Part shown: positions 15,100 through 53,130 of the stretch, piece after piece
Layout: every line of letters begins with the position of its first letter
How positions within the stretch are numbered: position 1 is the first letter of the stretch
Origin: Chamaesiphon sp.
Lineage (GTDB): Bacteria > Cyanobacteriota > Cyanobacteriia > Cyanobacteriales > Chamaesiphonaceae
Reading direction: 5' to 3'
DNA length: 64,000 nucleotides
Assembly: GCA_965246715.1 (NCBI GenBank)
Contig: CBDFFH010000029.1
Span: 1-64,000, forward strand
Program-made: the position numbers and the translations under genes
Notes under the pieces: generated by a model
Told to the model about the DNA's origin: nothing
The model's database searches: none
Seen by the model: only the letters and a program-made list of their open reading frames with translations

Positions 15100-16224
15100 A
15101 TGAAACGATTAACATACTATGTTGTCTTTTGGCTATTCAGTCTAGGAGGTGTTGCTAACGCACAGCCTAATATTAAGAGTGAATCGATCGGCCAACAGCA
15201 ATCGAGTGCCACTTCATCTGTTACAAAAAAAATAACTGCCGATCGTATTCTAGCTCAAATCGCTCCATCAAAGCCCACTCTAGCCGATGCTCTGAGTCAA
15301 GCTCCCGCAGATCGCTCTGTAGAAAATCGGTCGATCGATATTAAAACCGATCGGCTAGAGACAGTCGATACAGATAATACAGCGCGACCCGAAATGCCAC
15401 CTGGGTTTGTAGTTAGACCCCAGGCTCTGAGTAGAACTCCCGAAGATCGCTCCTTAGAAAATCAGTTGATTGATATCAAAAACGATCGGCCAGAGACAGC
15501 CGATAAATATAATACCTATCAACCCGAAACGTCACCTGGGTTTTCAGTTTTTAATCCAGTCGGGTTTGGGGCTGACAACAACCTGTTATTTTTGTCTCTA
15601 AGCTATCAAAATCGGACGAGATTTACCCGCACGGCTGATGGTGAGGCAGGAATTGGTTTTGGGTTGGGCGATGCGACAAAGTCGATTGGCGTGGAGTTAT
15701 CCTATGGGATCGACAGCTTTGGGAGTAGTGCGGGGTTTGGGAGTGGTGGATTCAATGCCAAACTGCACAAACGATTGAATGACGATGCATCTGTGGCAGT
15801 TGGTTGGAACCAATTTGCTCGGCTCCAATTTCGTGGGGGCGCAAATGTGCCCTCTGATTATCCCCGAAATTCTTACTACGTAGTCGGTACGAATATTTTT
15901 CACACGCGCGAAGATATTAATGCTCCATTCAGTCGCGTGGCGATCTCTGGGGGCATCGGTAGCGGTGTGTTCTTGCGATTCGATCCCAAACTCAGTCCTG
16001 GGGATTCAAACAGAGGGGTGAATGTTTTTGGTTCGATCGGGGTGAGGATCGCCCGACCGATTAGTGCGATTATCGAATGGACGGGACAAGATGTTGGTGT
16101 TGGACTCTCGATCGCGCCGTTTAAAGATATTCCCTTAGTCATCACCCCAGCAATTCGGGATATCGCTGGCGCTGGCGATGGCGCGAGATTCATTTTAGGC
16201 TCGAGTATTGCGATTAACTTTTAA
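15100..16224 (+). CDS. Secreted/outer-membrane hypothetical protein (possible beta-barrel) with an internal 45-aa duplication
   Basis: Signal peptide; Gly/aromatic alternating C-terminal region ending in F; 135-bp tandem duplication. Confidence 0.7.
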   Translation: MKRLTYYVVFWLFSLGGVANAQPNIKSESIGQQQSSATSSVTKKITADRILAQIAPSKPTLADALSQAPADRSVENRSIDIKTDRLETVDTDNTARPEMPPGFVVRPQALSRTPEDRSLENQLIDIKNDRPETADKYNTYQPETSPGFSVFNPVGFGADNNLLFLSLSYQNRTRFTRTADGEAGIGFGLGDATKSIGVELSYGIDSFGSSAGFGSGGFNAKLHKRLNDDASVAVGWNQFARLQFRGGANVPSDYPRNSYYVVGTNIFHTREDINAPFSRVAISGGIGSGVFLRFDPKLSPGDSNRGVNVFGSIGVRIARPISAIIEWTGQDVGVGLSIAPFKDIPLVITPAIRDIAGAGDGARFILGSSIAINF

Positions 16225-16331
16225 AGAAGTTGCTGAGTATTGCCAAATAATGATGTATCATTTAAGGCATTTGTAGTTTTGGCGCTCGACGATAATCTGG
16301 CGATCGACCATCAATTAAAATTGGAATCCTC

Positions 16332-16883
16332 ATGTTGAAAATCTCTCAGTATCTCCAAACAATTCTCTACTTTAGTGCGATCGCATCGGCTACTGTAAAT
16401 AGCTTGACACTATCTGCTAGTGCTAGCGATCGTCAATTTTCTACGCCGTCGCTCCCACAAGTACAGCTCCTGGCTGGCACTAATGTTAGCAATAGCGGTG
16501 GTAGCAATGTCAGTAATACCACTGGTTCCAATGTTAGTAATACAACTGGCTCCAATGTCAGCAATACTTCTGGCACTAATGCTAGTAATGCTACTGGTAG
16601 CGATCCCGATAAACGAACTGGCCGTTATGATGTAGATACCAGTTCTCGCGCTGACAAAATCTTGTCGAGATATAGCAATGCTTTGAGCGATTACGATCGC
16701 GCAGCGACAGTTTTAGCTACTGCAGAATCAAATCCTGGCAGTAGCAACCGCAGCGAATTGATGAATGCAAAAACTGCCGCAGCGACAGAATTAGCTAAGG
16801 TCAGAGCCGAGGCTAAGAACTTTGTGGAAACTGTCAAACCTAATTCGGGTAATTCTGCCAAAGCTTTTAACCCCAGTTGGTAG
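16332..16883 (+). CDS. Secreted hypothetical protein with 5 octapeptide repeats
   Basis: Signal-peptide-like N-terminus; G(S/T)N(V/A)SNxx repeated 5 times. Confidence 0.7.
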   Translation: MLKISQYLQTILYFSAIASATVNSLTLSASASDRQFSTPSLPQVQLLAGTNVSNSGGSNVSNTTGSNVSNTTGSNVSNTSGTNASNATGSDPDKRTGRYDVDTSSRADKILSRYSNALSDYDRAATVLATAESNPGSSNRSELMNAKTAAATELAKVRAEAKNFVETVKPNSGNSAKAFNPSW

Positions 16884-16932
16884 ATTCAGATCTTGCACCA
16901 GTTTAAAAATACTATTACTAATCGTAGATCCA

Positions 16933-17030
16933 GGGTACCCACAAGGGGCACCCCTACCGGTTAATTGTGTAAGGGTGCCCCTGTCTTGACTGAAACCCTT
17001 GTAGAGACGAACCAATCGGGTCGTCTCTAT
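16933..17030. repeat. REP-like cluster (GTAG-foot palindromes)
   Basis: GGGTACCCACAAGGGGCACCCCTAC at 16933-16957, a partial inverted copy at 16969-16982, and GTAGAGACGA..TCGTCTCTAT at 17001-17030. Confidence 0.8.
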
Positions 17031-17326
17031 ATTTGTCTGTACTGGTGTGGTAGTTGCGCTAAACGATCTGGAGATCTACCTCCCAGACTGAATTTTTTGT
17101 TATGCCTAAACTCTCGATCGACGGATATCGTTCGGTCGGTGGTCGCTTAGCGCAACGATAATCGCAGGATCGATCGGGTAAAATGTGCCGTGCGGGAGCG
17201 GAAATTGTTAAGATAGACAACAGTGATGAAACTGCGATCGCCTCTCGCGTGTGGAAGACCGTTAATTCGATCGACTCACTGGGCGCGCTCGATAGTCAAC
17301 TACAAATTGTCCTTAATCGGATTTAA

Positions 17327-18361
17327 ATGATGGCAGCCGCAGTACTTATTCAAAATCTGTGCAAGAGCTATGGTGATGTCCCAGCGGTTAAAGACGTATC
17401 TTTTCAGGTCGAGCCTGGAGAAATTTTTGGGTTGTTGGGACCTAATGGCGCAGGTAAAACAACTACCATTCGCTGCCTCTGTACTCTTGCTAAGCCCGAT
17501 TCGGGTACGATCGAAATCGGTGGTATTTCGGTGCTCGATTATCCGCGCGAAGCCAGGAAACGCCTCGGCTATGTCGCGCAGGAAGTCGCGCTCGACAAAA
17601 TTCTGACTGGTCGCGAACTGCTCGAACTTCAAGCCGCACTCTACCATATTCCGAAAGTAGCGGCGCGCCAACGCATCGAAGTATTGCTAGAAATCCTCGA
17701 TTTACACAGTTACGCTGACAAAAAGACTGGCACCTATTCGGGGGGATTGAAACGTCGGCTCGACCTCGCAGCGGGGCTACTCCATCAACCGGAAGTATTG
17801 ATCCTCGACGAACCAACGGTAGGGTTAGATATCGAGAGTCGAGTAGTGGTGTGGGATTTCTTACGCCAACTAAGAGCCAGTGGCACGACGATCCTGATTA
17901 CTAGTCATTATCTCGAAGAAGTAGACGCTCTAGCCGATCGGGTGGGCATTATCGATGGTGGTTTGGTAATTGCGGAAGGCACGCCCTCTGCGTTGAAAGA
18001 TTGCTTGGGTGGCGATCGAATTACGCTGCGGATTCGCGAATTTACGCCGTTATCAGAAGCCGAAAAAGCCAAGCATTTATTAGGTAGTATCCCTTTCGTT
18101 CGGGAGGTAACGATCAATGCCAATCAGGCGAACTCACTGAATTTGGTGGTTACCGCCGATAATGCCAATAATAATGATGTACTGACGACAATCCAACGAG
18201 CGTTGCAAGCTGCGGAATTACCGATCTTCGGGATCGCCCAATCCCGTCCGAGTTTGGATGATGTTTATTTAGCAGCGACAGGCAAAACCCTCCTCGATGC
18301 CGAACTAGCTGCTGCTAGCAGTCGCGATCTCAAAGCCGAGAAAAAACAAAGTATGCGATAG
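17327..18361 (+). CDS. ABC-2 type transporter ATP-binding protein (DrrA-like)
   Basis: GPNGAGKTT, YSGGLKRRLDLA, LILDEPT, PSLDDVYL. Confidence 0.93.
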   Translation: MMAAAVLIQNLCKSYGDVPAVKDVSFQVEPGEIFGLLGPNGAGKTTTIRCLCTLAKPDSGTIEIGGISVLDYPREARKRLGYVAQEVALDKILTGRELLELQAALYHIPKVAARQRIEVLLEILDLHSYADKKTGTYSGGLKRRLDLAAGLLHQPEVLILDEPTVGLDIESRVVVWDFLRQLRASGTTILITSHYLEEVDALADRVGIIDGGLVIAEGTPSALKDCLGGDRITLRIREFTPLSEAEKAKHLLGSIPFVREVTINANQANSLNLVVTADNANNNDVLTTIQRALQAAELPIFGIAQSRPSLDDVYLAATGKTLLDAELAAASSRDLKAEKKQSMR

Positions 18362-18375
18362 GAACGGGGGATTTG

Positions 18376-18657
18376 ATGCAGGCGCGATTTAGTCGCAAAT
18401 TAGGTTTGTTACTGATTATCGTTTCCTGCGGGATGTGGGCGGCGGTTTTAGTCGTCCCATTCTTGCCCTGGGCCAGTAGCGTACCACCGAGCACCGCAAT
18501 CGCCCAAAAAGCGCTATTAACCACTAGTCTACTCATCGCTAGCGAAGTAATCTTCTGGCTGGGCATATTATTATTAGGTAAGGAACTTGCCAGTCGCTAT
18601 CGGCAAAAATTGAATCCTTACTATTGGTGGAAAAAAGTTACTCAAAAAAGATTCTAA
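18376..18657 (+). CDS. Small two-TM membrane protein (transporter-suffix-like)
   Basis: Two hydrophobic helices and SEVIFWLGILLLGKE; located between the ABC ATPase and permease genes. Confidence 0.7.
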   Translation: MQARFSRKLGLLLIIVSCGMWAAVLVVPFLPWASSVPPSTAIAQKALLTTSLLIASEVIFWLGILLLGKELASRYRQKLNPYYWWKKVTQKRF

Positions 18658-18805
18658 GCAACTCACGATCTCCAAGCTATTTTCAGGCGCTGGCTCGATG
18701 TTGTTAAAGAACTAAAATAATCGAGATTTCTCAGACAACGGCGAAGAAATAGAATAATCGACAACTCATAAATTCATCACTCTATAAATTTAGCACTAGC
18801 CTATC

Positions 18806-19696
18806 ATGAGCGGCACTATCAACACCTCCGAACTTATCAACTCGCGATCGCGCGATCTCGATCCATCAAGCGACCCGTCACAATCGGATCTGGCGGATTT
18901 TATTCAAGAAACCTTAGCTCTAACTAAACGGCTGTTTATTCAACTCCAGCGTCGCCCATCGACATTAGTTGCCGGAATAATTCAACCATTGATGTGGTTG
19001 GTATTATTTGGCGCATTATTTCAGAATGCGCCGCAAGGGATGATGGGGAGTGACTTAAATTATGGGCAGTTCTTGGGTGCGGGCATCATCGTATTTACGG
19101 CATTTGTCGGTGCGTTAAATGCTGGATTGCCAGTAATGTTCGATCGCGAGTTTGGCTTTCTCAATCGCTTGCTCGTCGCTCCGCTCGCGTCTAGATATTC
19201 GATCGTCGCTGCTTCGGCGATTTATATCGTCGCACTGAGTCTGGTACAGACAGCCGCAATTATCGGACTGAGTGCCTTGATGGGTGCGGGTTTGCCGAGT
19301 GTGCTGGGACTGGCAATTATCGGATCGATCGTTCTCTGTTTAGTCTTGGGTGTCACTGCATTGAGCTTAGGCTTTACCTTTGCGTTACCCGGACATATCG
19401 AATTGATTGCGGTAATTTTCGTCATCAACCTGCCCTTATTATTTGCTAGTACTGCTTTAGCCCCATTATCATTTATGCCCGAATGGTTGCAGGTTGTCGC
19501 TTGTCTCAATCCACTTACATATGCGATCGAGCCGATTCGCCATCTGTACACGCATCCACAGTGGAGTGCGATCGATACTGTATTGCAAGCGCCGTGGGGA
19601 GCTGTGTCTTTTGGCACCTCGCTGTTAGTCCTAGTGGGGTTTGCTGGATTTACCCTAATCGCAATTCAACCCCTGTTAAAACGGAAATTAGCCTAG
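18806..19696 (+). CDS. ABC-2 type transporter permease
   Basis: QPLMWLVLFG, DREFGFLNRLLVAP, NPLTYAIE. Confidence 0.92.
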   Translation: MSGTINTSELINSRSRDLDPSSDPSQSDLADFIQETLALTKRLFIQLQRRPSTLVAGIIQPLMWLVLFGALFQNAPQGMMGSDLNYGQFLGAGIIVFTAFVGALNAGLPVMFDREFGFLNRLLVAPLASRYSIVAASAIYIVALSLVQTAAIIGLSALMGAGLPSVLGLAIIGSIVLCLVLGVTALSLGFTFALPGHIELIAVIFVINLPLLFASTALAPLSFMPEWLQVVACLNPLTYAIEPIRHLYTHPQWSAIDTVLQAPWGAVSFGTSLLVLVGFAGFTLIAIQPLLKRKLA

Positions 19697-19860
19697 TCAT
19701 AGGAACTATTTGAATATTTCGGACATCGTGACTTTTATCACCTACCCAAACAATTTACCGCTTCGTTAAAATGAATAGATAGTCACTCTCTCATCGCGAG
19801 CTTGGCGATCGAAATAGCGGCAGTGGCAATCTTATCTTATTTCCTCTCCCGTAAATAATT

Positions 19861-20190
19861 ATGAAACTTTTCCTCACTTCGACAACGATCCTATTTGGCT
19901 TAACAGTTGCACTCGTACCCACGATCGCATCGGCTCAATATAGTAGTGGTGGCTTCGGTAATAGTGGCGACAACCGCGATCCCTTTAATAGAGCTTCAGC
20001 AGGCGACACCTCTGGACTGATGCAGTTGCTCAACCAAGCGCAATTAAACGGACGGAGCAATCCTAATGCTATCAACGAACAGCAAGAGCAGCTAAATTCG
20101 GCAACTGCTGATTTTCGCGCTCGTCAAATGCAAGCCCTCAAAGATCGCAACAAGAAAAACGTTCCAGCAACTGCTGTTAAATCGAAGTAG
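19861..20190 (+). CDS. Secreted hypothetical protein
   Basis: Signal peptide ending in ASA; clean ORF. Confidence 0.7.
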   Translation: MKLFLTSTTILFGLTVALVPTIASAQYSSGGFGNSGDNRDPFNRASAGDTSGLMQLLNQAQLNGRSNPNAINEQQEQLNSATADFRARQMQALKDRNKKNVPATAVKSK

Positions 20191-20304
20191 TAGTTGAATT
20201 GAATCGGCAAGCGATATCTGCCAAATACTTAAAGATCGTCCGGAATTATTGGCATCGTCAGCGTATTAAATTGTAAGTATGACTCATTTCAATTAAAACG
20301 CCCG

Positions 20305-20697
20305 ATGAAACAATTTCACTTAGCTGCTACCATGATTTTTAGCCTAGCGACACCATTATTAATCCAGGCAATCTCGCCGACAATGGCGGTAGCTCAAGCC
20401 AATAGTCCGAATGGTGTCTTTGCCGATCGAGAATGGACTGTGACTGTCTATTATGAAAATAATAGTTACCACTATCGCGGCTTCAATCGGCTGACAAATA
20501 GCTCGATCGAATTATCCGGTGCTACTTCATCTAGCGATCGTCAACGAAAATACTATATTTGGAATAATGGTGGCACTCGCTATCGCGTGAGTTGGAATCG
20601 GCAAGATCCAGATTTTATCCGCATTCAAGTCAAGACTCCAAATGGGAAAGAGGTGTTAAATCGTTTATTAGCGCGCTCTGGTGAAGGCGGGATGTGA
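20305..20697 (+). CDS. Secreted hypothetical protein
   Basis: Signal peptide; YYIWNNGGTRYRVSW..DPDFIR motif. Confidence 0.75.
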   Translation: MKQFHLAATMIFSLATPLLIQAISPTMAVAQANSPNGVFADREWTVTVYYENNSYHYRGFNRLTNSSIELSGATSSSDRQRKYYIWNNGGTRYRVSWNRQDPDFIRIQVKTPNGKEVLNRLLARSGEGGM

Positions 20698-20729
20698 GTT
20701 ATCAGTAATGCGATCGCTGATAACTCACA
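20693..20729 (+). terminator. Hairpin at the gene end
   Basis: TGTGAGTTATCAG...CTGATAACTCACA, 13-bp stem. Confidence 0.5.
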
Positions 20730-20852
20730 GCTGGCACTAGTATATATACTCGCGATCGCATTGCGCTAGGGTACCGATAAAGAGCACTGGTGGATTATGG
20801 CAGCACCAGTAGATCCAGGGTACCCACAAGGGGCACCCCTACAGATTAATTG

Positions 20853-21005
20853 TGTGGCAGGATGGTTTCGTACAAGAAAAGAAAAATCTCTTAGTTCACT
20901 TCAGTGAACTTTCGCTGTTAGCCCGAAATTCATTTCAGGGCGGTTGAAGACTAAGCCCCAAGGTTTGTGCATTTTTCTTTTCTTGTATGAAACCACCCTG
21001 CTACA
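20853..21005. mobile_element. MITE-like element, 153 bp, ~35-bp TIRs, 9-bp direct repeat GATTAATTG
   Basis: Left TIR TGTGGCAGGATGGTTTCGTACAAGAAAAGAAAAAT; right ATTTTTCTTTTCTTGTATGAAACCACCCTGCTACA; flanks 20844-20852 and 21006-21014 are identical. Confidence 0.8.
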
Positions 21006-21028
21006 GATTAATTGTGTAGGGTTGCCCC

Positions 21029-21077
21029 TATCTTGACGTTTTTTTATTCGGGCGGAACTCCCGAATAAAAACGCCGC
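21029..21077 (+). mobile_element. 49-nt hairpin mini-element inserted at a CT core within a REP
   Basis: Comparison with intact REP copies shows GCCC-CT-[ATCTTGA..hairpin..CCG-CT]-TGTGGGTACCC. Confidence 0.7.
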
Positions 21078-21362
21078 TTGTGGGTACCCTTGAATCTCCG
21101 CTTCTACTAGTCATTATGTAGTGTTTATTTAGCTTTAAAATCTAACGTTTAGTAACCAAAATAGTGTAGACAAAAAAACTCGCGATCGTTAGACAGATCG
21201 TGCCCAGTAAGATTCCACCTGGCAGAAAAGTTACGACTCGGAAACCGCGTAATAAAAACAGTAAAATGCTCAGTCCGAGCGCGATACTAAAAATATAGGC
21301 AAACTTCTGAGTTAACGGCATATAATAACAATCTCACTGTAAAAATTCGAGTTAGCCTGTTA

Positions 21363-22967
21363 ATGAGTCTCGACGACCGCCAAAATCTCACATCTGTTCG
21401 ATCGCTCAGACGCATCCTCTTGAGCGTACTGACTATTTTTGTCCTGATCAAACTTATTTTCTCATTGATTGCCACGATCGATCGACCTCAGATTCAAGGC
21501 AAATTTGAGTTATACCAAACTAATCTCGTCCTCGATGCATCGGAGTGGAAACCGACGGCAGATGCGGCGGCGTTGGATGAATTAAAAACGGCGATCGTCG
21601 GTACAGATGTGCTCGAATCGGCAAGTAAGCAATATCAAACCGCGCGAGAAACCGATCTAAAAACGATCGCGAAACTCGACAGCGATTTATCCGAGTTGGA
21701 GACAACAGCAGTCGCAGGCAAAATCGATAAATCGGTGAAGTTGCAAATAAAATCGATCGAACAAACGATCGCTGCGGCAAAATTAGAAGTCGCCAAAATC
21801 GATCTTCGGCTGGGTATTTTTCAAGCAGCTCAAAACCATCCAGACGCGGCAATTGAGACTTGGCAAACAGTCCGATCCAATGCCCAACAATCTCAGCCTA
21901 AAAATGTTGCAGCATCACTAATTGCAATTTGGCAAAAATCTGCGGAAATTAATGCCAATACCTTACCGCAAATCGAAGCGGAAATTAATACCAACTTTGA
22001 TGGCTGGTTTCGCGATGGCGTTCGGCATCAATTGTATGCAAACTTAGGCGACTCCCAGGAATTAGCGCAACTCGATCTCACTGCACAATCCCGTGCCAAA
22101 AATGCTTTAATCAAATTAGCTGCCAATACGGTTCCGCGCGTAATCTTAGGTTTGATTGGAGTCGGCTTAATCATCTTTTATACAGTTAGATTTACCATCC
22201 AGATCGTTCAAAAACAGCCAGATCGATCGGTTGCAGATATATTGTTAGCCAAGCTAGATACGCCCTGGATATCTCCTTGGGATTGGGAGATCGTCTGGCA
22301 AGTATTTATGCTGGGATTCTTTTTTGTCGGTCAGTTTTTACTACCGTTCGGATTTAGCACATTCATCAATCCAGCACAGCTTACCATTCAAGGGCAGGGA
22401 TTTTATGTATTTAGTAGCTATGTTTTGATGGCTGGTTTGTGCTTGGGCGTGTTGTATCTATCGATTAAAAATTATTTACCATTACCGCCAGATTGGTTTA
22501 AATTTAACTGGCAATCGAATTGGCCGTTATGGGGCATTGGTGGTTATTTAGTCGCCACCCCGATCGTAATTGTCGTATCTGTATTAAACGAGCGAATTTG
22601 GCAAGGTGAAGGTGGCAGTAACCCGATCTTACAAATCGTCCTCGAAGGCAAAGATCCGATCGCGTTATTGCTGTTTTTCATGACTGCGGCAGTGGCAGCG
22701 CCACTATTTGAAGAATTCTTATTTCGGGGATTTCTGTTACCTTCCCTGACTCGCTATGTCCCTGTCTGGGCTGCGATCGGGTTGAGTGGGTTATTGTTTG
22801 GTGTCGCGCATCTGAGCTTGTCGGAAATTATTCCGCTCACAACGCTCGGGATCGTGCTGGGGGTAGTTTACACGCGTACCCGCAATCTCCTCGCCTCGAT
22901 GCTATTGCATAGCTTATGGAATAGCAGCACGTTGGTTAGTTTATATATTTTGGGAAGTAGTAATTAA
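21363..22967 (+). CDS. CPBP (Abi/CAAX) family intramembrane metalloprotease
   Basis: APLFEEFLFRG, FGVAH, HSLWN motifs. Confidence 0.92.
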   Translation: MSLDDRQNLTSVRSLRRILLSVLTIFVLIKLIFSLIATIDRPQIQGKFELYQTNLVLDASEWKPTADAAALDELKTAIVGTDVLESASKQYQTARETDLKTIAKLDSDLSELETTAVAGKIDKSVKLQIKSIEQTIAAAKLEVAKIDLRLGIFQAAQNHPDAAIETWQTVRSNAQQSQPKNVAASLIAIWQKSAEINANTLPQIEAEINTNFDGWFRDGVRHQLYANLGDSQELAQLDLTAQSRAKNALIKLAANTVPRVILGLIGVGLIIFYTVRFTIQIVQKQPDRSVADILLAKLDTPWISPWDWEIVWQVFMLGFFFVGQFLLPFGFSTFINPAQLTIQGQGFYVFSSYVLMAGLCLGVLYLSIKNYLPLPPDWFKFNWQSNWPLWGIGGYLVATPIVIVVSVLNERIWQGEGGSNPILQIVLEGKDPIALLLFFMTAAVAAPLFEEFLFRGFLLPSLTRYVPVWAAIGLSGLLFGVAHLSLSEIIPLTTLGIVLGVVYTRTRNLLASMLLHSLWNSSTLVSLYILGSSN

Positions 22968-22984
22968 TCTGAATTAGCAATAGT

Positions 22985-23515
22985 TTATTTAACCTGAAGC
23001 TTGTATTTCGTCCAGACTTGAGCCTTAGTATCGATCTTTTTGGGGAAGCGCCAGCGGATATAGTCATAAGCTGATGCAGGTGCTTCCTTATTGTCGATTT
23101 TCGGCTTGGCAACAAATGTTTTGCCACCATCGACACTAAATAATAACTCAGCACCATCGATGCCAGTAGCAGAGTTCTTGAGATAGTTAGTCCCACGCGG
23201 AATCGGTTGTTTTAACATCAGATTCTTGAGCGGACAATGGCTGTTATTTTTGGCAATAACGGTGTATTGAATGATATCTCCTGGTTTGACCGCTGCTTTA
23301 CCCACGATCGGTTGGAATACGACTTTTTTATCTTTTACTACTTTCTTGTCAGCTTTGAGGGTGAGGATCACGCGCTGGTTTACGGGCGATTTATCTACGC
23401 AAGGAGGTCGTCGGGATTTCGATTTAGCTTGCAATGGAAGTTGCAGGGTTATCAACCAAAAGATCGCTGCGATCGGAACAACGGCACTGAAACTAGCGAA
23501 TAAGGATTTGTACAC
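22985..23515 (-). CDS. DUF11 (conserved repeat) domain secreted protein
   Basis: VKPGDIIQYTVIAKN...QPIPRGTNY...FSVDGGKTF...YDYIRW. Confidence 0.8.
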   Translation of the reverse strand: MYKSLFASFSAVVPIAAIFWLITLQLPLQAKSKSRRPPCVDKSPVNQRVILTLKADKKVVKDKKVVFQPIVGKAAVKPGDIIQYTVIAKNNSHCPLKNLMLKQPIPRGTNYLKNSATGIDGAELLFSVDGGKTFVAKPKIDNKEAPASAYDYIRWRFPKKIDTKAQVWTKYKLQVK

Positions 23516-23681
23516 GATCGGATCTGATTTAGCAATATGTCTAAAGTAATATAATCGACCAGACGCGCGATCGAGCGATAAAGTTGCCAGATCTCCGGAC
23601 TTTGACTGCGACTATAGATGCAAGTGAGATTTTTAATTGTAGGCTTCCTGACGATCGGTTGCAGCAATCGCGATCGAACCC

Positions 23682-23777
23682 CAATACTTCTCGGTTAAAA
23701 ACTGCTAGCGACTGAAGTCGCCGCTAATGATACAAAGTCCGCCTAAGCGGACTAATTAGATTAACCGAGAAGTATTG
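23682..23777. mobile_element. MITE, 96 bp, perfect 17-bp TIRs, 10-bp TSD
   Basis: CAATACTTCTCGGTTAA / TTAACCGAGAAGTATTG; GATCGAACCC duplicated at 23672-23681 and 23778-23787. Confidence 0.9.
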
Positions 23778-23868
23778 GATCGAACCCGATCTCCTAGATA
23801 CACCCAACGAAGCTACAATACTCTATGACAGACTGCACCACCGATTTAACTCGATTCACATACAGACA

Positions 23869-25053
23869 ATGACTCTAGACTGGATTAGCCCCGCCGAACG
23901 CCTCCAATCGCTGCCTCAATACGTCTTCGCTCGGTTGGACGAACTCAAAGCCAATGCCCGCAGTCAGGGGATCGATCTGATCGACTTGGGCATGGGCAAT
24001 CCAGATGGGGCAGCGCCAGCACCAGTCATTGCCGCAGCCAAAGCCGCACTCGATGAAGCCACCAATCATGGTTATCCCCCTTTTGAAGGGACGGCGAATT
24101 TTCGTAAATCGATCGCCGATTGGTATTTTCGGCGCTATGGTGTCACCCTCAACCCCAATAGCGAAGCCCTCCCCCTGCTCGGTTCCAAGGAAGGCTTGGC
24201 ACATCTGGCGCTCGCCTATATCAATCCCGGCGATACCGTATTAGTCCCCAGCCCATCATATCCCGTGCATTTTCGGGGGCCAGCGATCGCTGGTGCAGAT
24301 ATTTATAACATCATCCTCAAGCCGGAAAATGATTGGGCGATCGATCTCAGCACTATTCCCGTAGATGTCGCCCGCAAAGCCAAAATTCTATTTTTCAATT
24401 ATCCTAGCAATCCTACTGGCGCGACGGTGCCGCGATCGTTCTTCGAGGATGTCGTCGCCTTTGCTCGCGAATATCAGATCCTGCTAGTTCACGATCTCTG
24501 CTACGCCGAACTCGCCTTCGATGGCTATCAGCCCACCAGCCTGTTAGAAATCCCTGGCGCTAAAGAAATCGGCGTTGAGTTCCACACGCTGTCCAAAACT
24601 TATAATATGGCGGGCTGGCGCGTCGGTTTTGTCGTCGGCAACAGTCAAATCATCCAAGGACTGCGCACGCTCAAAACCAATCTCGACTACGGAATTTTTG
24701 CCGCGCTGCAAACTGCCGCGCAGACGGCACTCGAACTGCCAGATGAGTATGTCACCCAGGTTCAAAATCGCTATCGCGAACGCCGCGACTTTATGATTTC
24801 GGGGCTGGCTGAACTAGGCTGGGAGATTAAACCCACCAAGGCAACGATGTATCTGTGGATTCCCTGCGCTGTGGGGTGGAATTCGACTGATTTTGCCCTG
24901 ATGGTATTGCAAAAAACTGGGGTGGTGTTTACGCCAGGTAATGCCTTTGGGATCGGTGGCGAAGGTTATGTCAGAATCAGTCTCATCGCCGATCTCGACA
25001 GGTTGGGAGAGGCAATCGATCGACTCAAAGCTGCTGGGATCCGGTACCAATAA
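23869..25053 (+). CDS. Class I PLP-dependent aminotransferase (aspartate/LL-DAP aminotransferase-like)
   Basis: NYPSNPTG, HDLCY, TLSKTYNMAGWRVG. Confidence 0.92.
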   Translation: MTLDWISPAERLQSLPQYVFARLDELKANARSQGIDLIDLGMGNPDGAAPAPVIAAAKAALDEATNHGYPPFEGTANFRKSIADWYFRRYGVTLNPNSEALPLLGSKEGLAHLALAYINPGDTVLVPSPSYPVHFRGPAIAGADIYNIILKPENDWAIDLSTIPVDVARKAKILFFNYPSNPTGATVPRSFFEDVVAFAREYQILLVHDLCYAELAFDGYQPTSLLEIPGAKEIGVEFHTLSKTYNMAGWRVGFVVGNSQIIQGLRTLKTNLDYGIFAALQTAAQTALELPDEYVTQVQNRYRERRDFMISGLAELGWEIKPTKATMYLWIPCAVGWNSTDFALMVLQKTGVVFTPGNAFGIGGEGYVRISLIADLDRLGEAIDRLKAAGIRYQ

Positions 25054-25222
25054 CTACTAGTGGCTAGTTGCTAGGCGAACGTACTTCAAGTAAATTATTT
25101 CGATAGATTTAGATAAAGCAATTGGGAGACTAAAAACTGCAAAAATTCGGTATCGAAATTAGTAGATTGCCTACTAATTAATAGTAGATAGTTGGTTGCT
25201 CTAATTTGGAGAGAGGAAAACG

Positions 25223-25921
25223 ATGACAGACAACGCACGCGAGAGCGAGCTAGAACAGAATTTGCGAGCGGCAGCACTAAACCAGCGGATGAGTGCGACA
25301 AACGAACTGGCAACTTATCCAGCAACTGTGGCGCTACCGATCTTCAAAAGATTGTTAGCAGAAAAAGATGTCGGCTTGCGGCGGCTCGCGGTGATGGGTT
25401 TGGGCAAGCATCGCAGTGATGAATCGTTTGAGGCGCTAAAGACGATCCTGAGTAATAATGGCGATCCGATTATCTTAGCCGATGCCGCTGATGCGATCTT
25501 TGACTTTGGCGATCGTGCGATACCGATCCTCCAACAATTATTCGATCGATCGCCGCAACCATCCCAATGGCAGATTCGCCAAACGATCGTGGCTTTATTT
25601 TTAGATACGGAGCATTATGATGCCATATTAGCTGTTGCTAGCGCCGCTTTAACTGACGAAAATGTGATAATTCAAGAACTGGGTGTGAGAGTATTTAAGC
25701 AGATGCTGCAATCGCCCTGCAAAGAATTGGCATTGGAACTGCTGCTAAAATTTGCCGCAGATCCTAACTGGCAATTGCGTTGGAGTGCGGCGAGATCTCT
25801 GCATGGTTGCGCGGAACTGCAAGCTAGGGAATCGATTGCGCGACTCCAGCAAGATGAAGATTTTCGAGTTATTGCTGCGGCATTAGAAGGCGTAGGTGTA
25901 CGAGAACGTGAGGTTGAATGA
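25223..25921 (+). CDS. HEAT-repeat protein (NblB/phycobilin lyase-like)
   Basis: Repeated HEAT-like helices (DVGLRRLAVMGLG, DPNWQLRWSAARSL, DEDFRVIAAALE). Confidence 0.8.
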   Translation: MTDNARESELEQNLRAAALNQRMSATNELATYPATVALPIFKRLLAEKDVGLRRLAVMGLGKHRSDESFEALKTILSNNGDPIILADAADAIFDFGDRAIPILQQLFDRSPQPSQWQIRQTIVALFLDTEHYDAILAVASAALTDENVIIQELGVRVFKQMLQSPCKELALELLLKFAADPNWQLRWSAARSLHGCAELQARESIARLQQDEDFRVIAAALEGVGVREREVE

Positions 25922-25970
25922 TTGGCTTTTGAGGATCCTAGGATTGGTATCCATCCCAATTTATTGATTA

Positions 25971-26252
25971 CTATTGCTTCTTACGACCGTAAAGAAAGTA
26001 GCCTCCAAATATAAACACAGTACATCGTGGCAACCAGTTTCCCAGAACTTCCCGATCGTCAAAATAGGTGTTTGGTGTTGTCTCCTGTGCGTGCTGCTGC
26101 CGATCGATCTCTTTAGGGGACATGCTCAGTGCCGATTGGGGACTGAGGCAAAGAGTTGACGTATAAAGAATCGCTGTAACTGTGAGTAGCGGAAATAATT
26201 GTTTTCCTGACATCTGACTTGTCCTCAAATTGAAACTACGGTTTATCTCCAC
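25971..26252 (-). CDS. Small hypothetical membrane protein
   Basis: Signal-like N-terminus and a C-terminal hydrophobic segment followed by basic residues; start uncertain. Confidence 0.45.
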   Translation of the reverse strand: MEINRSFNLRTSQMSGKQLFPLLTVTAILYTSTLCLSPQSALSMSPKEIDRQQHAQETTPNTYFDDREVLGNWLPRCTVFIFGGYFLYGRKKQ

Positions 26253-26300
26253 ATATATGTATTCTTGCGAGCCTGCATCCGATCCGGATGAAACCTAATA

Positions 26301-26900
26301 TCATAGGCGTTCGAGGATCGAACCGATCGTGAACGCCGAGATAGCGGATAGAGCACTTCCTATGCCTAAAAACATTACCAGCATCAAAGCAAGTAGACCG
26401 TAGTTATTTGTTTTCAACTTCCTTAGTGCTGGAAAGAACTTACTAAAAATATAAAATCCATCCAGCGGGGGAATCGGCAGACAGTTAAATAAAAATAAAT
26501 TAAAGTTGACAATTGCTGCCATAAAGAAAAAATCTCGACTTAAGAATTGCGAATACATAGAAAGTTTTAGTGCTATGACACATATAAATCCTAAAACGAG
26601 ATTCAAAAGAGGCCCCGCTGCTGAAACTAGAAAATCTCCCCATTGGCGCGACCTAAATTTACTTGGATTGACAGGCATAGCACCCCAAGCTATCCCAAAT
26701 AGGCAGAGAACAACCAGTGATTCTGCTCCCATGTGTACCAATGGGTTCAGAGTTATGTGTCCAGATCTACTCGGTGTATTGTCACCTTGGCTCAAGGCGA
26801 CTACCCCATGAGCCAACTCATGCAGACAAATAGAGAAAATCAGAATCACAATTAGTCTAAAGTAACTAAGTGGATTTTCTGTCAACATTTGAATCATCAC
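26301..26900 (-). CDS. Site-2 protease (peptidase M50)
   Basis: HELAH, SAAGPLLN, NCLPIPPLDG. Confidence 0.92.
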   Translation of the reverse strand: MMIQMLTENPLSYFRLIVILIFSICLHELAHGVVALSQGDNTPSRSGHITLNPLVHMGAESLVVLCLFGIAWGAMPVNPSKFRSRQWGDFLVSAAGPLLNLVLGFICVIALKLSMYSQFLSRDFFFMAAIVNFNLFLFNCLPIPPLDGFYIFSKFFPALRKLKTNNYGLLALMLVMFLGIGSALSAISAFTIGSILERL

Positions 26901-27260
26901 AAGCTTTAAATCCCAGATAGAATAGATTAGGCTGCTACATTACCAAACACAGCAACAGTAATATTTACAACACCTCTTAATATCTATCCGGAAACTAATT
27001 AATCTACTAGTCAATCATTCCAATAACGATCGCCACCATAGCCTTAAACGTAGAAATAATTGCTGTGGAGCGCTTTTGGGCAATTTTGCTTCGCTTGGGC
27101 GGTGATTGGCTATTGGGTCGATAAATGGGTACGTGAGATCGTATTTGTCCGCTTCTTTAGCAACATTTTCCTCCCCACCAAACCAAACCTCTCACCTCGA
27201 TCGGTTTCGATCGTCGAGAATGTAGCGATAAGATAAGAGAATGTTGCATGAGGTGCTGTC

Positions 27261-28715
27261 ATGTCTCAAATTCCGAGTGGCGTAGAAGTAGAAAGACATC
27301 GAGCCGCAATGACGCGGGTGGAACTATCGCGTCCGATCCGGCTGGCGCTCGAGTCTGGTATTATCACGACAGAGACGACAATTTTTGACTATGGCTGCGG
27401 ACTCGGCGGCGATGTGAGGCGATTGCAGGCAGCGGGCTACAATTGTGATGGTTGGGACCCATATTATTTTCCGGATATCGAGCGGCGATCGGCGGATATA
27501 ATTAATTTAAGCTACATCATTAATGTCATCGAAGATCCGGCAGAACGCGATCGAGCATTAATCCAAGCCTGGGAATTAACAGGACGAGTACTAATTGTCG
27601 CCGCACAGATTTTAGTTAATGAGTTGCGGGGAATGTTGGCTTATGGCGATGGGATTTTAACCAAGCGGAATACCTTCCAAAAATATTATCAGCAAGCCGA
27701 ATTAAAAGAATATATCGATCGGATTTTAACAGTCGATGCACTGCCAATCGGGTTGGGTATTTTTTTAGTCTTTCGCGATGAATGCCAAGCAGAAAGTTTT
27801 CGCGCCGAGCGGCTCTATTCGCGACTAATAACGCCGAGAGTTAGAGTTGAAAGCAAGCGATTTGAAGACTATCAATCACAACTCGCACCGCTGATGGAAT
27901 TTGTCAGTCAGCGCGGGCGCATTCCGATTAAAGGAGAACTAATCGAAGCAGCAGAATTAAAGCGAGAATTTAGAACGATCGAGCGCGCATTTCAGATTAT
28001 TTTAACCGCTACCGATGAAGCAGATTGGGATGCGATCGCTTATCGGCGATCGTTAGATTTACAAGTTTATCTCGCGCTGGCTCAATTCGGACAAGGACGC
28101 AGCATCAGGAAACTATCTCCAGCAATGAGATCGGATATTAAAGCCTTTTTTGGCAGTTATGATGAAGCTTGTGAAGTTGCCGACAGGTTGCTATTCAAAA
28201 TCGGGCAACCAGGCGTAATTAAGCAAGCATGTCAACAGAGTAAGATTGGTAAACTATTACCTGCGGCTCTCTACGTTCACATCTCGGCGTTAAATGAACT
28301 CGATCCCAAACTCCGGCTCTATGAAGGTTGTGCCAGTCGGAATATCGGGGGTACTGAAGATGCCAACATTATCAAATTTCATACCGATAAACCTTGTATC
28401 TCTTATCTCTATTACCCAGACTTCGATGCGATCGCACATCCGGCTTTACAATGGTCGATGTTAATCGATCTCCGCGATTTGAGCGTCAAATTTCGCGATT
28501 ATTCGCAACAGGAAAATTTACCGATCCTGCATCGCAAAGAAACATTCCTCAGTGAGAGTCATCCACTCTATGCTAAATTTGCTAAATTAACCAAAGCTGA
28601 AGTTAAAGCTGGACTATTGAGCGAAACTAAAACGATCGGCAATCAACAAGGATGGGAACGCCGACTTGCAGAATGTGGCGTATCGATCGTCGATCATCGC
28701 ATTTCTAAACTTTAA
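27261..28715 (+). CDS. DNA phosphorothioation-associated putative methyltransferase
   Basis: RHRAAMTRVELSRP, FDYGCGLGGD, GWDPYY, YIINVIED, TFQKYYQQAEL, SYLYYPDFD, ILHRKETF match my recollection of this family. Confidence 0.85.
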   Translation: MSQIPSGVEVERHRAAMTRVELSRPIRLALESGIITTETTIFDYGCGLGGDVRRLQAAGYNCDGWDPYYFPDIERRSADIINLSYIINVIEDPAERDRALIQAWELTGRVLIVAAQILVNELRGMLAYGDGILTKRNTFQKYYQQAELKEYIDRILTVDALPIGLGIFLVFRDECQAESFRAERLYSRLITPRVRVESKRFEDYQSQLAPLMEFVSQRGRIPIKGELIEAAELKREFRTIERAFQIILTATDEADWDAIAYRRSLDLQVYLALAQFGQGRSIRKLSPAMRSDIKAFFGSYDEACEVADRLLFKIGQPGVIKQACQQSKIGKLLPAALYVHISALNELDPKLRLYEGCASRNIGGTEDANIIKFHTDKPCISYLYYPDFDAIAHPALQWSMLIDLRDLSVKFRDYSQQENLPILHRKETFLSESHPLYAKFAKLTKAEVKAGLLSETKTIGNQQGWERRLAECGVSIVDHRISKL

Positions 28716-28843
28716 CAATCTAGCGATCTGTCCAAATTTAGGTGAATATTCCGAAAATTACCGCTTAATAACTGTTAGATTACATGGCATTAATGGGTAT
28801 ATTTATCATACGATCCATCTCTTTAAGTCTTTAAGCAAACAAT

Positions 28844-29062
28844 ATGAGCTTTGAATTAGTTGAGTCGAGTGTCTTGAAGATTTGTAAGATTTGTATTCAT
28901 GAATTAGTTGGCCTAGCGGATCACTACTTCCTGAGCGAATTTAATAATATTGACAACCAAATCGCAGAGGTTTTGAGCGATAACTTAAGAAAAACAAAAA
29001 TTGAAAGAGCTAATCGTGAGCGTATCGAGTTCTGGAAATCCAGAGGAGTTGACGCTAAATAA
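28844..29062 (+). CDS. Small AT-rich hypothetical ORF or gene remnant
   Basis: 72-aa ORF in low-GC DNA with no recognisable motif. Confidence 0.3.
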   Translation: MSFELVESSVLKICKICIHELVGLADHYFLSEFNNIDNQIAEVLSDNLRKTKIERANRERIEFWKSRGVDAK

Positions 29063-29132
29063 CTTTTACGAGCTTGTCTGATATTTAAGATGCTTACAGT
29101 TTTAACCTGCACACATTACTAACAGCTATTAC

Positions 29133-30641
29133 TTACTTTTCTGCTGGCAATATTTTCTCGATCGCTTGTTTGACAAACATCTGCAAAAACTCATCCTTCC
29201 GATTTAATTGAAATTGTTGCTGCACTACTTCTGCCATTCCCCCATCGCCCCAGGTGCGATTTTGCCGAAAGTATTCGATAAAACTGCGACCCGCAATTCG
29301 TGTTAGATATGCAGCCGTAATCCCTTGAATTCCTTTGCCAAGTGCGTAGGTAGTGACATTAACAGTTAACACCGCAGATAAGACTTGAATCGCGCCTTTA
29401 ACGATGCCCAAACTCGTCAGCGTTTTACCCAAGGAAAGTGCCAATTCTTGCGCCGTATCCTTATTTAGCTCGCAGCCGTAGATCTTCCCGATTTCGATAA
29501 TCATTTGGGTATTAATTGCCGCTGTCGCCAGAAAATCGACGACGGGTAACGGGGTTGCGACAACCACACCCGCCCCGATCCATTGATAGCGATTTACTAC
29601 CCGATCGGCTTGACGGCGACGTTGTTCTTCGATCAGCTCCCGCGCTTCTGCCCCTAGACGGTGCGATTGGAGCAAAATGTTGTCTGCTACCAAATCCTCT
29701 CCTTCAGCGCGGAGAACGGCAGCTAGACGGCGAATTAGAGGTAAAATATCGGGATCGGGAGTAAATATTTCGCCCGATTCTAATCTGACTGGTTGCGGGT
29801 TAGCCGCGATCGCGATGACATCTTGGGCTTCGATCTGTTGCCGAACGCGGCGTTGGAGCTGGGCGACAATTGCATCTCGATCGACTGGTGGATATAAATC
29901 GGTTTTGTTGAAAATTAACAGCGATCGTTTGCCGATTTCTGCCAATCCCATCAGGGGAATATATTCAGATTCGCGTAAGTCATTATCGACGACAAATAGT
30001 AGCAGATCCGCCGCCGTAGCTAGATCTCTAGCGATCGCTTCGCGGTGCGTTCCGGCGATGCCAGCTTCGAGGATTCCTGGTGTATCCGTCAGTAAAATTT
30101 GTCGCTCCAAGCCTTTTAATTCGAGCGTGTATGTCTCCCCGCGTGTCGTCGTCCCCATCGGCGCGCCCACTTCGCCGACGATCCGCCCGATAATGGCATT
30201 AATTAGCGAGGTTTTGCCAGCCGAACCCGTACCGAACACGACGACACGAATCTGTCCCCGCGCCAGATTTTCGGCGATTTCGCGTGACTTATCGATTAAG
30301 GCTTGACGGGTGACTTCATCTTGAATTTGTTGGAGCTGTAACTCGATCGCGCGGAGATTGGCGGTAGCTGCGGCGGTTTTTTCAACGGGGACTTTTGGTA
30401 ATTCCGGCTTTTTAACTGGCGTTTTGCGCCACCAGCCTTGGAAGATTCCAACATAATAGATCCCGATGGCAATCGCGATGCCAATTAGCAGCAAAATCCC
30501 CAGCAACAGCGGCGTTGCCAACCACGGAGTCGTCCAACTCACTTGGACGTAGAGCGCATACAGCGAATTAATCAACCAGAGCGACAAAATCGCAGTCGTA
30601 ATGCCAATAATCGCGATCGACCAAGAACGGGGTAGGCGCAT
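29133..30641 (-). CDS. GTP-binding protein with DUF697/YcjF domain
   Basis: GTGSAGKTS, DTPGI, NKTD; C-terminal TPLPVVDF region. Confidence 0.88.
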   Translation of the reverse strand: MRLPRSWSIAIIGITTAILSLWLINSLYALYVQVSWTTPWLATPLLLGILLLIGIAIAIGIYYVGIFQGWWRKTPVKKPELPKVPVEKTAAATANLRAIELQLQQIQDEVTRQALIDKSREIAENLARGQIRVVVFGTGSAGKTSLINAIIGRIVGEVGAPMGTTTRGETYTLELKGLERQILLTDTPGILEAGIAGTHREAIARDLATAADLLLFVVDNDLRESEYIPLMGLAEIGKRSLLIFNKTDLYPPVDRDAIVAQLQRRVRQQIEAQDVIAIAANPQPVRLESGEIFTPDPDILPLIRRLAAVLRAEGEDLVADNILLQSHRLGAEARELIEEQRRRQADRVVNRYQWIGAGVVVATPLPVVDFLATAAINTQMIIEIGKIYGCELNKDTAQELALSLGKTLTSLGIVKGAIQVLSAVLTVNVTTYALGKGIQGITAAYLTRIAGRSFIEYFRQNRTWGDGGMAEVVQQQFQLNRKDEFLQMFVKQAIEKILPAEK

Positions 30642-30795
30642 ATTTTAAGTTAATAGCGGTCTGTCTATTATCGTAGTTGAAATTACCGCTACCTCGATCG
30701 GCTGAGATTAAAATAGCTCGGCCACAACCAGTGGCAAGTGGAATTCGATCGAACCTTGCTAAAATAGGAGATGCTCTACACAGCCGAATTTTCCC

Positions 30796-31401
30796 ATGCT
30801 AGAAAACCGCGACTATACTTTGATTATCGACAAAAGTGGTAGCATGTCAACTAAAGACAAGCCGGGTGGTTCTAGTCGGTGGCAAATCATGCAGGAGTCC
30901 GCATTGGCTCTAGCACATAAATGTGAAGAACTCGATCCAGATGGAATAACTTTTTATCTCTTCTCTGGTAAATTCAAACGTTACGATAATGTCACAGCAG
31001 CTAAAGTTACAACTATTTTCCAGGAGAACGATCCATCTGGAAGAACGGATTTAGCAAGCGTGTTGAAAGATGCTATTGATAACTATTCTCAACGGAAATC
31101 TAGTGGACAATCTGCTACTAATGGCGAGATGATTTTGGTTGTCACCGATGGCGAACCTGACGATCGCAAAGCAGTAGTAAAGGTAATTATCGATGCGACT
31201 CAGAAACTCGATCGTGATGAAGAGTTAGCGATTTCATTCATTCAAGTCGGTGCCGATGCCACGGCAACTGCGTTTCTAAAAATTCTCGATGACGATCTTG
31301 GCAAAGCTGGGGCAAAGTTTGATATCGTCGATACGATTACGATGGATGATATGGAAGATCTCACACTCAAGGAAGTGTTACTGAGTGCGATTAACGACTA
31401 A
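30796..31401 (+). CDS. vWA domain protein
   Basis: IIDKSGSM MIDAS motif, GRTDL, VVTDGEP. Confidence 0.9.
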   Translation: MLENRDYTLIIDKSGSMSTKDKPGGSSRWQIMQESALALAHKCEELDPDGITFYLFSGKFKRYDNVTAAKVTTIFQENDPSGRTDLASVLKDAIDNYSQRKSSGQSATNGEMILVVTDGEPDDRKAVVKVIIDATQKLDRDEELAISFIQVGADATATAFLKILDDDLGKAGAKFDIVDTITMDDMEDLTLKEVLLSAIND

Positions 31402-31566
31402 GTTTTAAAGGAGAGCGCCACTCGACAGACTCAGCCATTCGTTCGATCTCAAACTAAGTTCGAGCGTCATCTTTATCCAATTGTAAATTTAACTCGATTG
31501 TCTCAGCCACAGACTTACGACAGCCAGCATTACCAGACAATAATATCGTCCCAGAAATAAAACTTC

Positions 31567-31601
31567 CAGATCCCCGACTTCTTTGAGAAGTCGGGGATCT
31601 G
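31567..31601. repeat. Palindromic repeat / bidirectional terminator
   Basis: CAGATCCCCGACTTCT-ttg-AGAAGTCGGGGATCTG between convergent genes. Confidence 0.75.
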
Positions 31602-31634
31602 ACCCACTAGCTAGACACCACTGGTAGATAGAAT

Positions 31635-34244: not shown

Positions 34245-34325
34245 TCTACACTCAATTTTGCACTTTCAATCATTATATGCTTTCGGTATTGGGTCATGGG
34301 TATCGGTCATTAGGGATACGAGTTC

Positions 34326-34886: not shown

Positions 34887-35022
34887 AGATTAGGGAATAG
34901 GGGATAGGGGTTAGTGAACCTGATGGCGGCAAAAGAACCGGTAAAGATGCTCGGAGCGGCAGCGCTCACCTAACAAAATTAAGCCTAGCAATCGGTTGTA
35001 AATATAAGCGTAGATTTATCGA

Positions 35023-53085: not shown

Positions 53086-53130
53086 GGGTACCCACAAGGG
53101 GCACCCCTACAGGTTAATTGTGTGGGGGTA
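53086..53130. repeat. REP-like copy
   Basis: GGGTACCCACAAGGGGCACCCCTAC followed by AGGTTAATTGT and GTGGGGG. Confidence 0.85.

Follow-up and report, generated by a model that had tools for sequence, protein, structure and literature searches.

To our knowledge, the question of what moves the smallest bacterial repeats, such as repetitive extragenic palindromes (REPs) and small dispersed repeats (SDRs), has been unsettled for decades, and direct evidence from filled and empty sites is scarce at such sizes. The nearest kind to the elements described here are the SDRs (SDR1-8) of Nostoc punctiforme and its relatives, with which we compare them by description only. Elhai et al. in 2008 reportedly found SDRs within heptamer arrays, within other repeats and nested in one another. 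Passages in papers citing Elhai describe SDRs as 21-27-nt units that are absent outside the Nostocaceae, and one such passage places the insertions of SDR5 between bases 3 and 4 of HIP1, GCGATCGC. Here we analyze a stretch of 64,000 nt (the window, C29:1-64000) from a 6.12-Mb, 55-contig genome of the cyanobacterium Chamaesiphon (G000). An earlier reading of the letters alone (the sequence-only reading) had pointed out two tiny hairpins in a common framework flanked by CT, one at 21 kb and one inside mutS2, and had attributed them to an RNA-guided recombinase of the IS110 type. Both complete copies are present and belong to a family of 87 elements in the genome, which, given the filled and empty sites reported below, we are almost certain is mobile.

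Like SDRs, these elements are tiny, gene-less, dispersed, mobile between related cyanobacteria and without a known mobilizing enzyme. Their framework also occurs in the Nostocaceae, the host family of SDRs, namely in four plasmid records from Trichormus variabilis (2), Nostoc sp. C052 and Calothrix sp. PCC 7716. Unlike SDRs, the elements described here measure 47-51 nt, reside in Chamaesiphon and target CT. With REPs and REPINs (REP doublets forming hairpins) the elements share an imperfect hairpin, an unpaired 5' tag of 4-5 nt beginning with GT, CT on both sides, high copy number, the lack of genes and a mostly extragenic location; they differ in their tag, GTCT(T), in being single hairpins instead of doublets, in lacking a REPtron and in the filled and empty orthologous sites seen here. 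Palindrome-associated transposable elements (PATEs), which derive from IS200/IS605 insertion sequences (IS), likewise bear hairpins and no genes, and a reading as CCSCT|element fits their duplication-free insertion beside a short word. PATEs are longer, though, and carry two different subterminal hairpins, whereas here one hairpin spans the element and the chromosomal copies of G410, a close relative, gave no sign of a strand bias. In contrast to DDE-type miniature inverted-repeat transposable elements (MITEs), the ends are asymmetric, no terminal repeats reach the very ends and the flanking dinucleotide is always CT. IS621-like IS110 elements and ISPpu9/ISPpu10 are alike in the CT at each junction and in landing in REPs; compared with IS110 elements, the small elements have no recombinase, no room for a guide RNA, other termini and many targets, and most of the genomes bearing them are without a match to the Pfam model PF01548 (E<=1e-8). 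Overall, the elements are an SDR-like kind with a CT target, a GTCT tag, a stem conserved in structure only and a host outside the Nostocaceae.

The general frame of the family is CT-GTCTTG-[hairpin]-YCG-CT. The regular expression proposed in the sequence-only reading gave 63 matches genome-wide, a number for which that exact form has no control. A widened form, CT[AG]TCTTG.{20,90}?[CT]CGCT, matched 157 times compared to 40, 42 and 49 matches in three Markov-1 random genomes. When the interior was required to fold as DNA into one flush hairpin of -7 kcal/mol or below, 88 matches remained versus 3, 4 and 2 in the random genomes. One of them (C54:20143) is the right end of an IS110 element read backwards, which leaves 87 elements; CT on both sides of all 87 is a requirement of the search pattern. 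The majority (68/87) are simple elements of 49-54 nt including both CTs, equivalent to a net gain of 47-52 nt, and the other 19 reach 77-125 nt because further small elements are nested inside them. An independent pattern, CTGTCTTG N10-26 GGRAACC N10-26 CGCT, matched 67 times in G000 and 26 times in a close Chamaesiphon relative (G410), whereas the same pattern read backwards had no match in G000 and at most one in any genome. It was found in 19 of 401 sampled cyanobacterial genomes, among which G000 is by far the richest, and the framework is present in 9 of 45 genomes of one cyanobacterial family. Simpler catalogs based on pairing rules were dropped as noisy (117 matches vs 90-101 in the control, and 393 vs 254-262), and a strict rule for the closing pair, yielding 44 elements, was dropped as too tight.

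Conservation is confined to the ends and the fold. In an alignment of 49 distinct simple sequences, columns 1-8 (CTGTCTTG) and 51-54 (CGCT) are invariant except for one A in the 21-kb copy. In the left spacer RTCTTGW proposed earlier, the R reflects a private mutation of that copy, since G stands there in 67 of 68 distinct copies and at the orthologous position of G410. The stem pair 10:49 is of Watson-Crick type in 48 of the 49 sequences and comes in four types (CG 26, AT 13, TA 8, GC 1); pairs 11:48, 12:47, 13:46 and 22-24:36-38 each occur as three or four types. Thus, the stem is preserved through compensatory changes, with pairing kept and sequence free. Beside the closing G:C, the 68 copies with distinct flanks have A opposite T in 34 cases, T opposite C in 25 and some other combination in the remaining 9. 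The most fitting notation of the fold is 5'-CT | GTCT(T) | hairpin | (G) | CT-3', with asymmetric ends of 4-5 unpaired nt on the 5' side and 0-1 on the 3' side. The apex reads GGRAACC in 61 of 87 copies and its exact inversion GGTTYCC in 7, e.g. at C12:6384, C36:55700 and C47:69203, with the stem unchanged, which is a signature of loop inversion in a DNA palindrome. A second and rarer frame, CT-GCTTGGTG...hairpin...ATCCG-CT, with 10 copies of approximately 50 nt, follows the same CT rule and is mostly nested in elements of the GTCTTG kind (e.g. C1:27544, C20:435 and C29:114132); it also occurs in mutS2 of another Chamaesiphon (L015). At C9:142578-144122 (L094 279-1823), an IS4-like DDE insertion sequence with a 457-aa transposase and terminal inverted repeats ATTCGTGACAAG... 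lies in the GGGAAACCC apex of a small element, where it has duplicated the 11 bp CGGGAAACCCG. The hairpin apex of a small element is therefore itself a target for a classical insertion sequence.

Evidence for mobility comes from G410, a relative approximately 95% identical to G000 (92-96% nucleotide identity over the regions compared). The mutS2 site of G410 is empty and has a single CT, ...CCCACCCCCTGCCCC-CT-CCTGGGAGGGG..., whereas in G000 the element sits between two CTs, for a net gain of 48 nt that converts PAP|SWEG into PAP|CLVAPCATGNPSVAHR|SQEG in the protein. The site is likewise empty in a more distant relative (L018), and the empty allele appears in contigs from two public sequencing runs of one study. 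The sequence-only reading had suggested a search for empty sites in related strains, and such orthologous sites with a single CT do exist, both in G410 and in L018. When the flanks of all 26 pattern matches of G410 were aligned to G000, 8 were cleanly alignable: 5 sites are filled in both genomes, 1 is filled in both with extra nesting and 2 are empty in G000. Of the other matches, two were resolved by hand (see below), six had no orthologous flanks and the rest were ambiguous, their flanks being repeats themselves. At an internal CT of a copy filled in both genomes, G000 carries a nested element of its own, with a net length of 51 nt. Two copies of one repeat (L129 and L130) are filled in G410 and empty in G000, with flanks that are 100% identical. 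Hand alignment added L121, where G410 carries an element and G000 has just a single CT, and L140, where G000 is empty in a heptamer array that also differs in its number of repeat units. Together, at least six precise presence/absence differences separate G000 and G410 (mutS2, the nested copy, L121, L129, L130 and L140), and insertions have occurred in both since their split.

In mutS2, the element occupies a hypervariable linker that splits the MutS_V ATPase domain, so that Pfam MutS_V matches two stretches around it. The distance from IRRIxRIL to LLDEVGAGTDP, both of which were found in 61 of 79 mutS2 relatives, varies between 17 and 87 residues, and the linker is frequently made up of heptamer repeats in translation (for example PNAQFPMP or SQIPNPK). 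Across cyanobacteria, this linker (window 32750-33100, loci L015-L093) is a hot spot of repeat insertion. It tolerates insertions, and the net length of 48 nt preserves the reading frame. As the family adds between 47 and 52 nt, a copy that stays in frame is what selection would let through.

The 21-kb copy, CT-ATCTTGA-[CGTTTTTTTATTCGGGCGGAACTCCCGAATAAAAACG]-CCG-CT, belongs to a subfamily with a T-rich stem, and the mutS2 copy reads CT-GTCTTGT-[TGCGCC...GGGAAACCC...GGCGCA]-CCG-CT. Their limits had been placed nearly right in the sequence-only reading; the exact spans with both CTs are listed in Table 1. The 21-kb copy is slightly decayed, with CTATCTTG at its left end and GGGCGGAACTCCC at its apex. 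It is an old, decaying insertion, because it is common to G410, whose ortholog at the same site keeps the canonical CTGTCTTG and a better apex, GGGGGGAACTCCC. An empty ortholog of this site was not obtained, since G410 is filled and distant Chamaesiphon genomes align only from about 21140 onward. The element splits a GTAG-tagged REP hairpin whose undivided form is GTAGGGGTGCCC-CT-TGTGGGTACCC and whose core has 50 copies in the genome. Of this REP, the window holds four intact copies on the minus strand where three had been counted. The third left junction proposed earlier is real but merely a remnant in a REP loop, truncated from another subfamily and without a right end or the right half of the REP; a matching remnant is found in G410, which holds the full subfamily too.

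Table 1. Coordinates of the elements, REPs and IS110 copies discussed in the text; positions without a contig refer to the window
Feature	Position	Strand	Length or sequence	Remark
Complete hairpin element, 21-kb copy	21028-21078	+	51 nt including both CTs, net 49 nt	
REP hairpin, left half	21016-21027	+	GTAGGGTTGCCC	GTAG-tagged, split by the 21-kb element
REP hairpin, right half	21079-21089	+	TGTGGGTACCC	split by the 21-kb element
Complete hairpin element inside mutS2	32912-32961	-	50 nt including both CTs, net 48 nt	net length equals 16 codons
mutS2 open reading frame	31635-34244	-	869 aa	uninterrupted
Truncated left end of another subfamily	16981-16996	+	16 nt, CTGTCTTGACTGAAAC	in a REP loop
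Intact (empty) REP	16933-16957	-	GTAGGGGTGCCCCTTGTGGGTACCC	
Intact (empty) REP	20818-20842	-		
Intact (empty) REP	32852-32876	-		in frame within mutS2, 36 nt downstream of the element
Intact (empty) REP	53086-53110	-		
IS110 family A	C22:94047-95329, C43, C47, C15			loci among L001-L008
IS110 family B	C5, C15, C34, C14			loci among L001-L008

A separate repeat lies next to the 21-kb copy. Approximately 194 bp between REP halves in the window (20826-21019) are missing from G410. The internal unit of this stretch, with the hairpins GTTCAC..GTGAAC and AGCCCGAAATTCATTTCAGGGC, is a many-copy repeat across Chamaesiphon genomes, and three of its copies flank an IS200-like tnpA at C9:115734-116204. 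This looks like a REPtron- or PATE-like system that has also been active recently.

The 87 copies occupy 68 distinct flanks, which have in common only the CT and a C at positions -3 (48/68, 0.73 bit) and -2 (49/68, 0.89 bit). The TGCCC that had been noticed directly upstream of the first copies is therefore not general. Several targets recur. The REP loop GGGTGCCC|CT|TGTGGGTACCC is empty in 50 and filled in 11 cases in the genome, a second hairpin loop, AAGTCYGC|CT|NCGCRGACT, is empty in 191 and filled in 19, and a GAGGT|CT|CCTC hairpin is empty in 5 and filled in 2. Heptamer arrays (AGCCACT, ATTCCCT) are recurrent targets as well, as are a CT within another element and the CT at its end; use of the latter gives tandem copies, and the right end of the element, YCGCT, resembles the C-rich CT target. 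The loops of three GTAG REP families receive the elements, and a single subfamily occurs in at least five types of target. Folding is more stable at emptied sites than at random CT sites (mean -4.6 vs -1.8 kcal/mol), and at least four spanning pairs were found in 56% of the former compared to 39% of the latter. Some subfamilies are tied to larger repeats: BLAST of the flanks placed 11 copies of the T-rich hairpin within one 139-bp MITE that also exists in shorter, hairpin-free copies, and the 82-nt and ACTCGC subfamilies always lie within one composite repeat.

What moves the elements can be narrowed down to some extent. The mechanism that we favor, as a tentative proposal that may well prove mistaken, is mobilization of the folded single strand in trans by an HUH (Y1, IS200/IS605-RAYT-like; RAYT, REP-associated tyrosine transposase) nuclease-transposase acting at CT. 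The enzymes known to recognize DNA hairpins by way of a short 5' tag and to cut at a dinucleotide are those of the HUH Y1 type. In the relevant passages of two reports, RAYT/TnpA-REP requires a hairpin with the 4-nt 5' tag GTAG, cuts single-stranded DNA at C|T on either side of it irrespective of the flanks, and also carries out strand transfer (PMC3479197, PMC8266576). In our proposal, the element would fold as a 5'-GTCT(T) tag followed by the hairpin and a G, and the candidate enzyme would read the fold and the tag instead of the stem sequence, as a stem that is free in sequence but conserved in pairing points to recognition of a fold rather than of a duplex sequence. Cleavage at the CT on each side would release the element, that is, exactly what empty sites lack. 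The released element could then rejoin at any exposed CT preceded by C-rich bases, which would account for targets in hairpin loops, in repeat arrays and at the ends of other copies. With the left CT contributed by the target and the right YCGCT by the element, no duplication would arise. Candidate enzymes are available in G000, which encodes two IS200-like tnpA genes (C9:115734-116204 and C14:4535-4951) as well as two different RAYT-like genes with GTAG REPs on their flanks. The RAYT-like genes, weak matches to Y1_Tnp at C34:104082-104639 (L011) and C36:41018-41611 (L014), each have their own GTAG REPs in inverted orientation, and a third copy (C21:185994-186584) is interrupted by a stop codon. 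Of the RAYT-associated REP families, at least two have received small elements in their loops.

Several observations weigh against an HUH enzyme. We compared 15 other element-bearing genomes with 27 hand-picked non-bearing genomes from the same families, after four single pattern matches (G038, G272, G133 and G067) had been dropped from the bearing set because no hairpin was visible by eye. Y1_Tnp (E<=1e-20) was found in 14/15 bearing and 21/27 non-bearing genomes; it is nearly ubiquitous and does not discriminate between them. Homologs of the RAYT-like protein of G000 (E<=1e-5) are not enriched either (10/15 vs 21/27). Neither RAYT nor any other gene was flanked by elements, and the intervals between oppositely oriented copies contained ordinary genes. 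A strict search for a long autonomous version with matching ends returned 10 matches and no such version; a looser one returned 1566 matches that amounted to noise. The sole real one among the 10 was the element with the IS4-like insertion sequence in its apex, not an autonomous form. In place of GTAG, 67 of 68 distinct copies carry the tag GTCT(T), and no guide-type complementarity was found between the tag and the CT cleavage site. Lagging-strand targeting of the IS608 type would lead one to expect an orientation switch along the chromosome, and none was seen among the 22 chromosomal copies of G410, which have mixed orientations, a set in which some copies are passengers and for which the position of the origin is lacking. 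Stem mismatches show no excess of G.T on the tagged strand (12 G.T vs 29 A.C among 837 aligned positions, which are non-independent and come from a noisy alignment). Finally, many copies ride larger repeats, such as the 139-bp MITE and the 82-nt composite, and the independent insertions are fewer than 87.

Part of this evidence would fit a site-specific recombinase that acts on double-stranded or cruciform DNA with CT as a 2-bp crossover, either of the serine type (IS607-like) or of a new class, and that excises and integrates a circle. A single CT in empty sites and a CT on both sides of filled ones are the outcome of a 2-bp crossover, an asymmetric dinucleotide fixes the orientation, and the second frame with its 10 copies obeys the same CT rule. 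The apparent lack of both a replication-strand bias and a single-strand wobble bias would also favor this explanation. Against it, the stem varies freely and only its pairing is kept, which suggests that the fold and not a duplex is recognized, and merely about 6+3 conserved bases are offered for protein binding. On balance, we regard such a recombinase as rather unlikely.

Alternatively, the hairpin could be transcribed, reverse-transcribed and integrated, in which case the conserved fold would be that of an RNA. Reverse transcriptases are common in cyanobacteria, and a covarying fold fits RNA equally well. However, no Rfam match was obtained in 11 element loci from six other genomes or in window 16000-35000, no excess of G.T pairs was seen on the tagged strand, and the apex occurs in both orientations (61 vs 7 of 87), as is typical of a DNA palindrome. 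The elements also lack a poly-A stretch, a primer-binding site or a comparable mark, and spread through RNA is improbable.

The sequence-only reading considered the elements minimal passengers of an IS110/IS1111-type recombinase that joins the element ends into a donor with a CT core and is guided by a bridge or seek RNA encoded elsewhere. Its first part, that they are minimal, gene-less and non-autonomous mobile elements with conserved termini and a varying paired stem, is borne out, because orthologous empty sites exist and the stems covary; the IS110 driver did not hold up. This genome does contain CT-core IS110 elements that use REPs as insertion sites: among 11 PF01548 matches are two intact families of four copies each (Table 1), with ends that read CT|TGTATC(C/T)TAAAG on the left and ...TTGAC(TCT/ATT)CAAGACAGTAT|CT on the right, and the site of both is CCC-CT-AC, complementary to the GTAG tag of REPs. 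Their junction is ACAGTAT-CT-TGTATC, which we take to be the same as that of IS621. The expected ends forming CCG-CT-RTCTTG were searched for among the IS110 elements of G000, and their junction is a different one, unlike the YCG-CT-GTCTTG of the small elements; for this genome, that is an outcome which the sequence-only reading had itself named as a refutation. Several features nevertheless speak for IS110. CT flanks the small elements on both sides as it does IS110, with a single CT in empty sites, and the two IS110 families of G000 share the CCC-CT-AC of GTAG REPs as target. In addition, the 9-mer TCAAGACAG, the complement of the left end CTGTCTTGA of the small elements, is present in both families, 3 nt inward from the right end. 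In IS110, one CT derives from the IS and one from the target according to a passage of one report (PMC12288879), and non-autonomous IS110 modules are reported for ISPpu9, which we count in favor.

Against a bridge-RNA mechanism, there is no single guide-like target of approximately 11-14 nt, with 68 flanks for the small elements compared to one target type for each IS110 family, and the elements are too short for a guide RNA. PF01548 (E<=1e-8) was present in 3/15 other bearing and 6/27 non-bearing genomes and had no match at this threshold in G306, G162 and G290, which carry 14, 10 and 9 copies. At E<=0.001, no match above the cut-off was found in 4 of 5 genomes checked; draft assemblies may drop IS copies, but these genomes include G306 and G200 with as few as 8 contigs and 1 contig. 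We therefore consider the IS110 driver very improbable, and the mover is more likely a hairpin-recognizing enzyme than an RNA-guided IS110 recombinase. With respect to the IS110 elements themselves, TTGAC in the right end could be read as a -35 box directed toward the left end once joined, which contains TATCCT. With these two boxes, a promoter would arise solely upon joining into a circle. The non-coding IS110 ends had no Rfam match.

Least credible of all is that the elements do not move on their own but spread by riding larger repeats (MITEs, REP doublets), through gene conversion or through template switching during replication: the 11 T-rich hairpins in one 139-bp MITE with hairpin-free copies and the confinement of the 82-nt and ACTCGC subfamilies to one composite repeat would agree with this, but it is already contradicted by the orthologous filled and empty pairs, with precise presence or absence of 47-51 nt at unrelated single-copy sites such as mutS2 and the inside of another element, fully identical flanks at L129/L130 and one subfamily in at least five target types.

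It is conceivable, if somewhat doubtful, that a single hairpin of 47-51 nt with a 4-5-nt tag is a complete substrate for transposition, moved by an HUH-type enzyme or by a wholly new structure-reading enzyme that needs only an exposed CT. If this is true, the elements would be the smallest mobile DNA known, and with G000 and G410 the insertion of REP-like hairpins would for the first time have been captured in a natural system, even in frame in an essential-type repair gene. The pair supplies at least six differences, a simple target rule, a defined minimal substrate and a negative result for IS110 and bridge RNA, which brings the question of mechanism within reach of tests using oligonucleotides and four candidate proteins. 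Proteins, too, are remodeled by the elements, as the mutS2 copy has added 16 residues inside the MutS2 ATPase domain at a linker that repeats have reshaped across cyanobacteria.

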